DNA of 32,000 nt from Faecalibaculum rodentium (lineage in GTDB: Bacteria; Bacillota_I; Bacilli_A; Erysipelotrichales; Erysipelotrichaceae). The stretch spans positions 270,001 through 302,000 of the forward strand of contig NZ_CP011391.1 in assembly GCF_001564455.1 (NCBI RefSeq), written 5' to 3'. The notes below the pieces were generated by a model that did no database searches, was not told where the DNA came from, and saw only the letters and a list, made by a program, of their open reading frames with translations. Position numbers and translations under genes: made by a program. Position 1 is the stretch's first letter. Every line of letters starts with the position of its first letter. This document shows, piece by piece, positions 23,141-32,000 of the stretch.

Positions 23141-23791
23141 TCACCGTTTGATTTCCGTCATGTCCTGCACCACCTGCGTGATCTGCGCCACATCCTGCAC
23201 CTGGTTCTGAATGTGTCCGGAATCCAGCAGGCGGATGTCGCGGATGCCTGCCCTGACAGAACTGTCGATCCCCGCCAGGGAGTCTTCGATCACTGTCAGT
23301 TCCTCCAGGGGCATGCCGAGATTCTCTGCGGCTTTCCCGAACATCGCCACTTTGTTTTCGTAGGTCCCGTCATCATACACAATGGAATCCGGGTCCATCC
23401 ACCTGTCCAGATGGAAGTTCTTTACAAAGAAGTCGATGTTGGGTTTGATGGAAGCCGAGGCAATGGTGAAGGGAACCCCCTGGGCTGTGAGATCGTCGAA
23501 CAGCTCTTCGGCGCCTTTAATCAGGTGGAAATTCTCTGTATCTGCCTGGCAGAACTCCCGGTAGTACTCCTCCTTGAGAAGGGAGTATTTATCCTCCAGT
23601 GCACTGTCCTCCACGCCGCCGTTGAGGTAGCGGATGATCAGTTTGTTGGGCCGCCCGTTCATCTTTTCATGCAGTTCTTCTTCCGTGATGTCCGTGTTCC
23701 GCAGTTCCTGTGAAATGCGGTTCCATGCCAGCACATGCTTGTCGTTGTCCAGAAACAGAGTTCCGTTGAAATCAAAAATTACGCCTTTCAT
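23141..23791 (-). CDS. HAD-superfamily hydrolase (subfamily IA, beta-PGM/sugar-phosphatase-like) with variant motif I
   Basis: Motif I is 'VIFDFNGTL' (D-x-N where D-x-D is usual). The other HAD motifs are 'TIASAS', a K in the '..KVAMFGKAAENLG' region, and 'VIEDSLAGI'. The start abuts the lacR stop (TAAATG), with an AAGGAGAGG RBS inside the end of lacR. Confidence 0.8.
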   Translation of the reverse strand: MKGVIFDFNGTLFLDNDKHVLAWNRISQELRNTDITEEELHEKMNGRPNKLIIRYLNGGVEDSALEDKYSLLKEEYYREFCQADTENFHLIKGAEELFDDLTAQGVPFTIASASIKPNIDFFVKNFHLDRWMDPDSIVYDDGTYENKVAMFGKAAENLGMPLEELTVIEDSLAGIDSSVRAGIRDIRLLDSGHIQNQVQDVAQITQVVQDMTEIKR

Positions 23792-24559
23792 TTATTCCTC
23801 TCCTTTGACCTGCAGGATCTTCGTGTATTCCCCATAGTGGTCGATTACGTCCTTCGGGACGGATTTGTCGGTAATCAGTTCGTCGATGTTGTACAGATGG
23901 TCGTAGACATAGAAGTCCTCCCGGTTGAATTTACGGCTGTCTGCCAGCAGGAAGGTGCTTCGGGCATTCCGGCAGGCAATGGCCTGCATTTCGCCTTCTT
24001 CCATGGAGGATGTGGTGATTTCGTCATCTGCAATGCCGTTGCAGGAAATGAAAGCCTTCGTGAATTTCAGATCCCGCAGTACCTGGTTGGTCAGGGTGCC
24101 GACAAAGGCGCCCGTATTGGACCGGTACGTGCCGCCCACCAGCAGCAGACGGTCCTCCATGCGTTCCTTCAGTACCTCGAAGGCGGGAAGGGACGGAGTC
24201 ACGATCCGGATGTCCTTGTCCGGGATCATGGAAGCCATCATTTCCAGGGTCGTACCGGGACCCAGGAAGATGGTTTCATGGTCCTGCACCAGGCTGGCGG
24301 CATAGCGGGCGATGTCCCGCTTTTCTTCGATCTGCACCGTGGACTTCTGCAGGTGGGACAGCTCGAAGTCGATGTTGTAGTCCAGGGACTGTGCCCCGCC
24401 CCGAACACGGATGAGCTTGCCGCTTTTTTCCAGTTCGTCCAGATCCCGGCGCACCGTCATGTCGGAGACAGCCAGTGCCTCCATGATGTCCGCCGTATCC
24501 ACGATGCCCTTTTCATTGACCATCTGAAGTATTCTTGTCAGTCGTTCTCGTTTCAGCAT
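23792..24559 (-). CDS. lacR: DeoR-family transcriptional repressor (lactose PTS repressor type)
   Basis: 'RERLTRILQMVNEKGIVDTADIMEALAVSDMTVRRDLDELEKSGKLIRVRGGA' is a DeoR HTH and is followed by a DeoR C-terminal sugar-phosphate sensor domain. The gene is divergent from lacG. Confidence 0.8.
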   Translation of the reverse strand: MLKRERLTRILQMVNEKGIVDTADIMEALAVSDMTVRRDLDELEKSGKLIRVRGGAQSLDYNIDFELSHLQKSTVQIEEKRDIARYAASLVQDHETIFLGPGTTLEMMASMIPDKDIRIVTPSLPAFEVLKERMEDRLLLVGGTYRSNTGAFVGTLTNQVLRDLKFTKAFISCNGIADDEITTSSMEEGEMQAIACRNARSTFLLADSRKFNREDFYVYDHLYNIDELITDKSVPKDVIDHYGEYTKILQVKGEE

Positions 24560-24582
24560 CTGGTTGCTCCTTTCACAGTTCC

Positions 24583-24611
24583 TTTATACCGTGTTCTGTC
24601 ACTGGCGTCAA
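24583..24611 (-). promoter_or_regulatory. lacR promoter
   Basis: On the minus strand: TTGACG (24611-24606), a 17-nt spacer, then TATAAA (24588-24583). Confidence 0.55.
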
Positions 24612-24618
24612 TACAATC

Positions 24619-24637
24619 AAACAGAAATAAACAGAAA
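24619..24637. repeat. Two AAACAGAAA units phased 10 bp apart, just upstream of the lacR -35
   Basis: Read directly from the sequence: 24619-24627 and 24629-24637. Confidence 0.7.
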
Positions 24638-24686
24638 AACCGGTATATTCCAACAAAATCTGAAATAATTTGTTTGAAAAATTGAT

Positions 24687-24700
24687 TGAAACCGTTGACA
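24687..24700. promoter_or_regulatory. Catabolite-responsive element (cre, CcpA site) overlapping the lacG -35
   Basis: TGAAACCGTTGACA fits TGWAANCGNTNWCA at all constrained positions. With flanks it also fits WTGNAANCGNWNNCW. Confidence 0.7.
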
Positions 24701-24724
24701 TGGACGCTATTACCTGCGTAAACT
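24695..24724 (+). promoter_or_regulatory. lacG-lacF-lacE-galE promoter
   Basis: TTGACA (24695-24700), an 18-nt spacer, then TAAACT (24719-24724). Confidence 0.55.
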
Positions 24725-24749
24725 GTAGCTGTAACCAAACACAGGAAAC

Positions 24750-30200: not shown

Positions 30201-30210
30201 CCCATGCGTA

Positions 30211-30243
30211 CAAAAAACCGGGACTCACGCAAGGGAGCCCCGG
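30211..30243 (-). terminator. Terminator overlapping the galR stop codon
   Basis: On the minus strand, CCGGGGCTC..GAGTCCCGG (9-bp stem, 1 mismatch) is followed by TTTTTTG. Confidence 0.45.
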
Positions 30244-31211
30244 TCACTGAAGGAACAGGGAAGCTTGATGGATGCCGGCAGGGGATGGGGGTTGTCCAGC
30301 ATCATTTTCAAGAGCACCGCCGCGTACTGTCCCATGGTGAAGCTGTCCAGCCGGACGCTGGAAAGCGGAGGGTTGGTGTAGCGCACATCCTCGATGTCAT
30401 CGAATCCCACCAGGGATACCTCATTGGGAATGCGGATATCATGGGAGGCCAGAGCCGCACAGACCCCGATGGCTATGGGATCACTGGCACACAGGATGCA
30501 GGTCGGCAGCGGATCCGTCAAAGCCAGTTTCAGACCCATTTCATACCCCGATTCCCGGCTGAAACGCCCTGTCATGAGGTAAGGTTCGTATTCGAATCCC
30601 AGCTGCTTCGCATAGGACCGGAAAAACGACAGGCGCGGATCGGGATACTCCGTCTCGTCTTTCAGCGACTCGGTGCCAGTCACGAATGCCACCCGTTTGT
30701 GTCCTTTTTCAGCGATCCGGTCCATGACGTCTTTCATGGCAGCCTCGAAATCAAAGGATATCGTGGTGAACGAAGGATCTGTGGAACTCATGTCCACAAA
30801 GACCACACTGGGACACTGACTGGTGAATTCGACCATTTCATCATGGGAGAACTTGCCCAGGCAGATCAGGCCGTCAATGGTGCCGAAGACCTCCCGGATG
30901 TTGGCATCCGCCTTGAACATCCGGATGATCTGCAGCTGCTCCCTGGCACAGTATTCCTCGATCCCGCTTCGGATGGACAGATAATACGGATCGGCGAGTT
31001 CCTGCTCCAGGCTGTACCAGTGCAGGATCCCGATGCGTCTGGGATCTTTGTTTTTCCTGGCTTTCTTGACATACCCCAGTTCATTGACGGCATCCAGGAT
31101 TCTCTGGCGGGTGGAGTCCGGAAGCGAGAGCCGGGGGTCGTTGTTCAGAAACCGGGATACAGCGGCCTGGCTCACGCCGGCCAGAGCCGCCACTTCTTTG
31201 AGAGTTGCCAT
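30225..31211 (-). CDS. galR: LacI-family transcriptional regulator (galactose operon repressor type)
   Basis: Start at ATG 31211. 'MATLKEVAALAGVSQAAVSRFLNN...TRQRILDAVNELGY' is a LacI HTH, followed by a periplasmic-binding-protein-like sugar-binding domain. The gene is divergent from galT. Confidence 0.75.
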   Translation of the reverse strand: MATLKEVAALAGVSQAAVSRFLNNDPRLSLPDSTRQRILDAVNELGYVKKARKNKDPRRIGILHWYSLEQELADPYYLSIRSGIEEYCAREQLQIIRMFKADANIREVFGTIDGLICLGKFSHDEMVEFTSQCPSVVFVDMSSTDPSFTTISFDFEAAMKDVMDRIAEKGHKRVAFVTGTESLKDETEYPDPRLSFFRSYAKQLGFEYEPYLMTGRFSRESGYEMGLKLALTDPLPTCILCASDPIAIGVCAALASHDIRIPNEVSLVGFDDIEDVRYTNPPLSSVRLDSFTMGQYAAVLLKMMLDNPHPLPASIKLPCSFSDRGSLA

Positions 31212-31301
31212 GGAGTACCTGCCTTTCCTAACGATTATATCAGTAATGCCATGGAAAGGCATCACCGGTAATATTTTACCAGAGAATCATACACGGAAAC
31301 G

Positions 31302-31329
31302 ATTATACTGTGAATATCCTTCGTGTAAA
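31302..31329 (-). promoter_or_regulatory. galR promoter
   Basis: On the minus strand: TTTACA (31329-31324), a 16-nt spacer, then TATAAT (31307-31302). Confidence 0.55.
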
Positions 31330-31337
31330 CGGTTACG
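31324..31337. promoter_or_regulatory. LacI-family operator / cre-like palindrome
   Basis: TGTAAACGGTTACG matches TGWAANCGNTNWCA at 13 of 14 positions. It overlaps the galR -35. Confidence 0.5.
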
Positions 31338-31384
31338 ATTACCGGAATATTAGTAAAAAATTATTAGAATTTAGTAAAAATGAA

Positions 31385-31414
31385 TTGACGGGAGACGGTA
31401 GAGTTTACTACAAT
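31385..31414 (+). promoter_or_regulatory. galT promoter
   Basis: TTGACG (31385-31390), an 18-nt spacer, then TACAAT (31409-31414). The upstream region is A-rich with repeated TTAGTAAAAA. Confidence 0.55.
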
Positions 31415-31442
31415 ACAAACAGATAAAAAAGGAGAAACAAGT

Positions 31443-32000
31443 ATGCAGGAAACTCTCAATCAACTGATTCAGTATGCCCTGGATCATCAGATGATCGACC
31501 CGGAAGAGACTGACTACTGTGCCAATAAACTGATCGACCTGTTCCAGGAACCGTCATTTGCGAAACTGGAGACAGCTTCAGCCCCCCTGCCGGAGATCAT
31601 GAACCGTCTGCTGGACGAGGCAGTGAAGCGCGGACTCATGGAAGACACCGTGACAGCCAGGGATCTGCTGGATGCCAGGATCATGGACATCGTCATGCCC
31701 CGTCCAGGGGAGGTCATCCGGCGGTTCCAGGCCCTGTATGCACAGGACCCCGCCAGGGCCACCGACTGGTTCTACGACCTGTCCATCCGCTCCAACTACA
31801 TCCACAAGGACCGGACGGACAAAAACATCAAGTTCGAGAGAAACACGAAGTACGGCCCCGTGCAGATCACCATCAACCTGTCGAAGCCGGAAAAAGATCC
31901 GAGGGAAATCGCAGCCGCCCGCAGTCAGAAGTCCACGGGATATCCGGCCTGTCTGCTGTGCAAGGAGAATGTGGGATTTGCCGGCCATGCAAGTCACCCC
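31443..32000 (+). CDS. galT: Galactose-1-phosphate uridylyltransferase, Firmicutes type 2 (3' end outside window)
   Basis: This ORF is absent from the ORF track because it is open-ended. ATG 31443 follows an AAGGAGA RBS. 'ITINLSKPEKDPREI' and 'YPACLLCKENVGFAGHASHP' match the type-2 GalT pattern '..INLSKPEKDPK.I...YP.CLLC.ENEGY.G..NHP'. Confidence 0.85.
   Translation, partial: MQETLNQLIQYALDHQMIDPEETDYCANKLIDLFQEPSFAKLETASAPLPEIMNRLLDEAVKRGLMEDTVTARDLLDARIMDIVMPRPGEVIRRFQALYAQDPARATDWFYDLSIRSNYIHKDRTDKNIKFERNTKYGPVQITINLSKPEKDPREIAAARSQKSTGYPACLLCKENVGFAGHASHP

Follow-up and report, generated by a model that had tools for sequence, protein, structure and literature searches.

In the classical lac operons of Lactococcus lactis and Staphylococcus aureus (lacR, lacABCD, lacFEG), a DeoR-type repressor (LacR), a lactose phosphotransferase system (PTS; LacF and LacE) and the 6-phospho-beta-galactosidase LacG are encoded together with the enzymes of the tagatose-6-phosphate pathway (LacABCD). 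LacG releases glucose and galactose-6-phosphate (Gal-6-P) together. An enzyme that dephosphorylates Gal-6-P has been invoked for decades in lactic acid bacteria, both for galactose expulsion and for the PTS-dependent use of galactose through the Leloir pathway. For L. lactis MG1363, a route from the PTS through a Gal-6-P phosphatase into the Leloir pathway was postulated by Neves et al. (2010), as cited in PMC6085457, and according to PMC6085457 and PMC6339885 the phosphatase of L. lactis has yet to be identified, in agreement with the first-pass annotation of the DNA studied here. Our search of the literature found no paper naming a Gal-6-P phosphatase enzyme. Here we analyze a 32,000-nucleotide stretch of the Faecalibaculum rodentium genome, hereafter the window, in which a hydrolase of the haloacid dehalogenase (HAD) superfamily is encoded with a lactose-PTS cluster and Leloir genes and becomes a candidate for such an enzyme.

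The source genome is a single contig (C1) of 2.54 Mb with ~55% GC, 99.8% complete, and the window covers C1:270001-302000. Its lac cluster resembles the classical operon in its DeoR-type LacR, its lactose-PTS proteins LacF and LacE, its LacG and the Gal-6-P that LacG yields. However, the genome lacks LacAB, LacC and LacD, and the place of the tagatose-6-phosphate genes is taken by the HAD gene, whose product carries a D-x-N motif, and by Leloir genes. Because the tagatose-6-phosphate pathway is missing, we propose that the HAD protein is a Gal-6-P phosphatase that feeds the Leloir pathway, giving a hybrid lactose PTS-Leloir route, and we put the probability of this reading at roughly 0.6. LacFE would import lactose as lactose-6-phosphate, which LacG would split into glucose and Gal-6-P; the HAD protein would hydrolyze Gal-6-P to free galactose, and GalM, GalK, GalT and GalE, encoded alongside, would turn galactose into glucose-1-phosphate. 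LacR probably senses a phosphorylated intermediate, for example Gal-6-P, and would control the divergent promoters. The first-pass annotation had suggested a bridge of this kind, and comparative genomics now supports it through the linkage of lacG, HAD and Leloir genes and through the alternation of HAD with LacAB, from which we infer the substrate and the reaction.

The proposed pathway shares with the route postulated for L. lactis MG1363 that PTS-derived Gal-6-P is dephosphorylated for a Leloir pathway that is the only galactose route present. Two differences stand out: a specific gene is tied here to lacG and the gal genes, whereas there no gene has been assigned to the phosphatase, and lactose enters here by a dedicated lac-PTS, whereas galactose enters there by a low-affinity PTS. 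A HAD phosphatase inside a sugar catabolic operon also has a counterpart in AraL, a HAD sugar phosphatase encoded within the arabinose operon of Bacillus subtilis. AraL, however, belongs to a different HAD subfamily with a canonical D-x-D motif, and it probably serves detoxification on the side instead of catalyzing a step that the pathway requires.

Gene calls were checked with Pfam and NCBIfam, and NCBIfam equivalog cut-offs are quoted in bits. The genes assigned to the proposed pathway and its repressor are, in window coordinates:

23141..23791, minus strand: HAD-IA (C1-cap) hydrolase of the D-x-N subfamily, candidate galactose-6-phosphate phosphatase (Pfam HAD_2, 1e-18)
23792..24559, minus strand: lacR, DeoR-family repressor (HTH_DeoR and DeoRC domains)
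24792..26192, plus strand: lacG, 6-phospho-beta-galactosidase of glycoside hydrolase family GH1 (TIGR01233, 733.8 bits, cut-off 561.2; NF010036, 794.9 bits)
26219..26533, plus strand: lacF, PTS EIIA of the lactose/cellobiose family, with an ATG start (PTS_IIA, 2.7e-30; TIGR00823, 128 bits, cut-off 136.95)
26580..28280, plus strand: lacE, PTS EIIC-EIIB (TIGR00394 lac_pts_IIC, 529.6 bits, cut-off 614.4, the best match; TIGR00853 IIB, 110.7 bits, cut-off 110)
28285..29307, plus strand: galE, UDP-glucose 4-epimerase (TIGR01179, 468.9 bits, cut-off 262.3)
31443..32000, continuing to 32924, plus strand: galT, of which the N-terminus lies in the window (GalP_UDP_transf, 1.9e-31; full 493-residue reading frame C1:301443-302924)

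Both domain collections upheld the arrangement first read from the sequence, with lacR-HAD diverging from lacG-lacF-lacE-galE. LacG and the IIB domain score above their cut-offs, and IIA and IIC are best matches falling just under theirs. The stop codon of lacR (TAA, 23794-23792) abuts the ATG of the HAD gene (23791), so that the TAAATG junction already noted can be read directly and the two genes are translationally abutted; they are probably co-transcribed. Just past the window, galT is directly followed by galM, which overlaps, and galK, the run covering C1:301443-305191. GalM passes its model (NF008277, 278 bits, cut-off 240). GalK (C1:303917-305191) is divergent in sequence, scoring 132.6 bits on TIGR00131 against a cut-off of 226.65, and carries the GalKase_gal_bdg and GHMP_kinases_N domains. 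The Leloir set is thus complete, with GalM, GalK, GalT and GalE all encoded beside the lac genes. The GalK proteins of the source clade have ~40 extra N-terminal residues, and 54-58% identity is kept across the gal operons of Erysipelotrichales.

The absence of lacABCD, first noted for the window, extends to the whole genome, where the NCBIfam search returned nothing above the cut-offs. Only an RpiB-like gene matched LacA (72 bits, cut-off 181) and LacB (107 bits, cut-off 313); for LacC there was only a PfkB protein at 147 bits (cut-off 410), and the LacD model had no match in the 99.8%-complete genome. The sole class II aldolase scored 220 bits, against 444 for the GatY/KbaY tagatose-bisphosphate type. 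The two genome searches that the first-pass annotation had named as checks, for lacABCD and for galK/galM downstream of galT, both came out on the side of its reading. The same genome gave one weak GH2 match and no GH42 match in a search for a beta-galactosidase route, so LacFEG is the evident route for lactose. Growth of F. rodentium ALO17 on lactose and galactose has been reported (bioRxiv 10.1101/2025.04.02.646113).

We compared the locus with 35 other genomes whose LacG scores above the cut-off. Among 400 genomes of the same family there were 30 of these including the source, hence 29 others; a second family of the same order contributed five, and a class-level sample of 400 genomes held only one LacG-positive genome from outside the order. 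The HAD gene adjoins lacG in 28 of these 35 genomes, probably in 29, although the genomes are related and do not count as independent samples, and the contrast with classical operons rests on an L. lactis control and established knowledge. The adjacency spans two families, at least 14 genera and two architectures. Within the source family the HAD gene lies within 1.5 kb of lacG in 23 of the 29, nine times as lacR-HAD divergent from lacG and 14 times ~20 nucleotides downstream on the same strand. The remaining six comprise one cluster split by a contig break, with lacG at one contig end and HAD-galT starting another, two genomes with the HAD gene elsewhere and three without a close HAD. LacD was found in none of these 29 genomes. 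All five genomes of the second family have lacG followed directly by HAD, and no LacD. Taking the 29 HAD-type genomes together, GalT is present in every one and LacD in none.

The order of genes in the relatives points the same way, since the HAD gene stands between LacG and the enzymes that need free galactose. The orders seen are lacE-lacG-HAD-galT-galM-galK-galE (often), lacF-lacE-lacG-HAD-GH53 galactanase-galR-galK-galE-galT-galM, lacE-lacG-HAD-galM, and lacR-HAD divergent from lacGFE beside galK-galM-galT, galE and galR. In Bacillus velezensis and B. siamensis, lacR-HAD diverges from lacG-lacF-lacE-galK-galE-galT, and in Terribacillus it diverges from lacGFE; the LacD of Terribacillus adjoins a fructose-type PTS rather than standing in a lacABCD operon, and no LacB above the cut-off was found there. 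Ileibacterium, Dubosiella, Terribacillus and Bacillus each have an equivalently placed LacR with 54-73% identity. Three LacG-negative genomes retain HAD-galT-galM-galK, two of them still with the divergent lacR.

The GH53 gene, an endo-beta-1,4-galactanase, lies between HAD and galR in two genomes (L053:11269-13476 and L061:7045-9270); in these two, the substrates of the "lac" PTS may be galacto-oligosaccharides derived from galactan and not milk lactose. Unannotated reading frames of 102-106 residues lie beside lacE in other loci.

Six LacG-positive genomes have no adjacent HAD gene (G129, G015, G245, G035, G454 and probably G173); in five of them a LacA/LacB pair lies directly beside lacG, and G173 has only short LacB fragments at contig ends. 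Three of the LacAB clusters were scanned: both G015 proteins and LacB of G129 score above the NF006380/NF006381 cut-offs, and the G454 pair falls just under. GalT is absent from four of the six. Beside lacG there is thus either the Gal-6-P isomerase LacAB or the HAD gene, and the HAD gene goes with Leloir genes. Such an alternation would be predicted if Gal-6-P were the substrate of both LacAB and the HAD protein. Two of the clusters without HAD have further genes and no class I LacD: lacA-lacB with DeoC in G015 (L056:10890-12767) and lacA-lacB with a GatY-type class II tagatose-bisphosphate aldolase in G454 (L062:5986-6935, 10356-11222). These look like a variant tagatose-6-phosphate pathway.

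Phylogenies of the two proteins tell different histories. In the LacG tree, the Erysipelotrichaceae lacR-HAD clusters group with Bacillaceae (SH-aLRT 98) to the exclusion of their own family's lacG-HAD clusters. The HAD tree puts every Erysipelotrichales HAD into a single clade (99), and the Bacillaceae HADs form a separate clade that is sister to a non-lac Enterococcus gene. As judged from these trees, the same D-x-N family has filled the same operon slot at least twice, via different lineages, a pattern that favors functional selection over hitch-hiking.

We next consider the HAD protein itself. Its AlphaFold2 model (predicted local distance difference test score 95.7) has a C1-capped HAD-IA fold, with a Rossmannoid core and a helical C1 cap. 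The top match in the PDB by Foldseek is 6W04, an uncharacterized Entamoeba HAD (template modelling score, TM, 0.89) that shares the DFNGT motif; the next-nearest structures are beta-phosphoglucomutases (beta-PGM), CbbY, HDHD1A and the BT2127 pyrophosphatase, with TM 0.73-0.79 for beta-PGM and CbbY. The protein thus shares with this C1-capped HAD-IA group and 6W04 the same fold (TM 0.73-0.89), motifs II-IV and the nucleophile; unlike beta-PGM, it has Asn two residues after the nucleophile (Asp+2) and Asn49 in place of Arg49. It approaches none of the NCBIfam equivalogs, sugar phosphatases included, and reaches 53.7 bits on beta-PGM (TIGR01990) against a cut-off of 189.4. These scores, together with Asn9 and Asn49 in place of the beta-PGM residues Asp10 and Arg49, exclude its being a beta-phosphoglucomutase or a named sugar-phosphatase equivalog. 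The residues that never vary across 42 aligned members are D7, N9, T11, D15, G46, K73, E74, Y77, N118, K147, E169 and D170; T109 is nearly invariant. The nucleophile Asp, the motif II Thr, the motif III Lys and the motif IV Glu-Asp are therefore intact, all invariant but for the near-invariant T109, and only Asp+2 departs from the catalytic set.

The D-x-N family occurs in Bacillota, Bacteroidota, Melainabacteria and Entamoeba, mostly with unrelated neighbors. The Protein Atlas labels its members generically, as "HAD family phosphatase", and we know of no member that has been characterized. Our literature search on a naturally occurring Asn at Asp+2 found nothing useful. Some D-x-N HADs carry additional fused domains, such as a ~140-residue C-terminal extension in a Bulleidia metagenome-assembled genome (L009:3403-4488), and longer proteins of the family run to 363-550 residues (representatives listed: P0015, P0043, P0045, P0053 and P0070).

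Several observations weigh against a Gal-6-P phosphatase. Motif I reads D-F-N-G-T, with Asn at the Asp+2 general acid/base in 42/42 aligned members. In an unbiased search covering 1.84 billion representatives, 102 clusters reached E<=1e-30, and among the best 150 representatives 137 have D-x-N, the rest being mostly fragments, and none has D-x-D. Engineered D-to-N variants at Asp+2 of beta-PGM, CbbY and BT2127 have been crystallized with substrate bound, according to their PDB titles, suggesting that sugar 6-phosphates would be turned over slowly if no other residue gave the proton. This Asn is a real mechanistic problem for sugar 6-phosphate hydrolysis. The genomic context of the wider family is also unhelpful: members in Bacteroidota, Melainabacteria and Clostridia have unrelated neighbors (Dus, LeuRS, radical SAM, proteases), the Pfam-annotated neighbors of 20 non-lac members showed no carbohydrate theme and so no hint of a substrate, and close orthologues occur in 18 LacG-negative genomes of the Erysipelotrichaceae sample. 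Conservation of the cap residues across the family hints at a common substrate that is not necessarily Gal-6-P and suggests one shared by organisms without a PTS. Furthermore, the HAD gene of the source genome lies with the repressor gene lacR, not in the lacG operon. Finally, LacAB-like pairs occur elsewhere in the genome in G194 (228 bits) and possibly in Ileibacterium (207 bits), both under the LacB cut-offs, so that genome-level exclusion of HAD and LacAB is not absolute.

Some of these points would also suit a broad or safety-valve sugar-phosphate phosphatase that relieves overflow of Gal-6-P, Gal-1-P or lactose-6-phosphate, or resets the LacR inducer pool, without carrying the main flux; galactose may then be partly expelled, as in L. 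lactis FD1. The family is common in non-sugar contexts with its cap residues conserved, the gene is coupled to a repressor gene in the source genome, and Asn at Asp+2 suggests a slow enzyme. The HAD-galTMK operons without LacG make a Leloir-side substrate such as Gal-1-P conceivable, and a reference title (Benthin 1994) speaks of galactose expulsion after Gal-6-P dephosphorylation in L. lactis. We nevertheless consider this role unlikely, because LacD occurs in 0/29 HAD-type genomes and a LacAB-like pair elsewhere only in G194 and possibly G060, so that some enzyme must process all the Gal-6-P, and the clusters hold no other conserved candidate. The position-for-position alternation with LacAB points instead to Gal-6-P as the common substrate, and placement in lacEG operons ahead of galM and galK fits a flux-carrying step.

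The catalytic oddity raises another alternative, in which the HAD protein is no hydrolase at all and conserves the phosphate derived from phosphoenolpyruvate (PEP), either by transferring it to glucose (a phosphotransferase: Gal-6-P + glucose -> galactose + Glc-6-P) or by moving it within the sugar (a Gal-6-P/Gal-1-P mutase). In its favor, the Asn is invariant (42/42 aligned), the nearest characterized folds are the beta-phosphoglucomutases, and the cap residues His19, Gly46 and Lys73 fall at the beta-PGM positions His20, Gly46 and Lys76; an acceptor would be at hand, since LacG yields glucose along with Gal-6-P. Still, beta-PGM needs Asp at that position for both transfers, Asn49 replaces the distal-phosphate Arg49, and the score on the beta-PGM equivalog is far under its cut-off. 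Direct conversion to Gal-1-P by a mutase would also leave no need for galK and galM, yet these operons retain both genes. We regard this alternative as improbable. A more specific proposal, that the D-x-N HAD hands the phosphoryl group of Gal-6-P on to the glucose that LacG sets free (Gal-6-P + Glc -> Gal + Glc-6-P), or that the cap supplies the proton donor, with the bridge recycling PEP-derived phosphate, is a long shot.

Lastly, it is very improbable that the HAD gene is an unrelated housekeeping gene lying beside the lac genes by coincidence: close orthologues do occur without lac genes (L008-L012) and the source genome has no second copy of the family, but adjacency in 28, probably 29, of 35 LacG-positive genomes, in two architectures, and the separate HAD clade of Bacillaceae argue otherwise.

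The locus and its relatives offer a concrete, cloneable candidate for a long-missing enzyme, with unusually strong genomic support: the operon has two architectures, independent HAD clades occupy one slot in two cases, and HAD alternates with LacAB at the level of the locus. Among the sampled Erysipelotrichales of mouse and human gut, the lac-PTS/HAD/Leloir module is the principal route for lactose, and the acid/base Asn, invariant across this HAD subfamily, poses a mechanistic puzzle in its own right. There is practical interest for lactose and galacto-oligosaccharide metabolism in dairy and gut microbes, and for the engineering of galactose or tagatose production.

Three further features of the lac-gal region are:

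24560..24791, no strand assigned: divergent lacR/lacG control region, with a promoter-like site and AACAAA/CGAAC repeats conserved in relatives
29550..30127, minus strand: decayed remnant of the PD-(D/E)XK (PDDEXK_2) transposase family, recognized by similarity to a paralogue
30225..31265, minus strand: galR, LacI-family regulator divergent from galT (LacI and Peripla_BP_3), with a terminator-like hairpin at 30245-30216

The control region has a promoter-like TTGACA-18-TAAACT at 24695-24724, ahead of lacG, of which TTGACA is invariant across the lacR/lacG intergenic regions of five aligned relatives. Repeats of the form AACAAA..CAAAC/CGAAC are kept on both sides of this promoter, near lacR and in the lacG leader (compared with L006, L007, L054 and L057), and these AACAAA/CGAAC repeats are candidate LacR operators.

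The lacE stop codon ends at 28280 and is followed by ACCC and the galE ATG at 28285, and from this spacing galE had appeared to belong to the lac transcript. The 4-nucleotide spacing stands; the galE concerned, however, is a recent, genome-specific duplicate. Together with 96 bp of 3' flank (28281-29403) it is a 97.6% nucleotide copy of C1:719555-720677 (98.5% amino acid identity of the protein), and the identity begins exactly 4 nucleotides before the ATG, at ACCC. The second galE is stand-alone with its own GGAGG, and the lac-linked copy has an AAGGAG, resembling a ribosome-binding site, supplied by the end of lacE. No galE follows lacE in the relatives' loci that were fetched. With a near-identical second copy and an arrangement absent from relatives, the lacE-galE fusion is a recent rearrangement specific to the source genome and not a conserved design.

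The transposase-like pseudogene reported between galE and galR, with galT beyond, was likewise found, and a paralogue gave it a type. The fragments between galE and galR have no Pfam match of their own, and the remnant at 29550-30127 shows ~82-84% nucleotide identity to C1:2023397-2024308, whose 303-residue reading frame matches PDDEXK_2 (PF12784). That better-preserved paralogue adjoins a group II intron reverse transcriptase/maturase (RVT_1 and GIIM), within C1:2023397-2025900.

Protein relatives put the source genome in the Erysipelotrichaceae, alongside Ileibacterium, Dubosiella and Allobaculum. On the HAD strand, ~220 nucleotides downstream of the HAD gene, lies a gene of the MCRA family (oleate hydratase type, 724 bits; 21129-22919, minus strand), and an alpha-amylase gene lies at 19503-20909. 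A complete rRNA operon (16S, 23S, 5S) on the plus strand at 14533-19389 accounts for a stretch poor in open reading frames with strong GC and AT skew. Near the start of the window, a second PTS EIIC of the lactose/cellobiose family (1166-2575, plus strand) is preceded by small reading frames at 363-1118 and followed by an Asparaginase_2 gene at 3436-4488.

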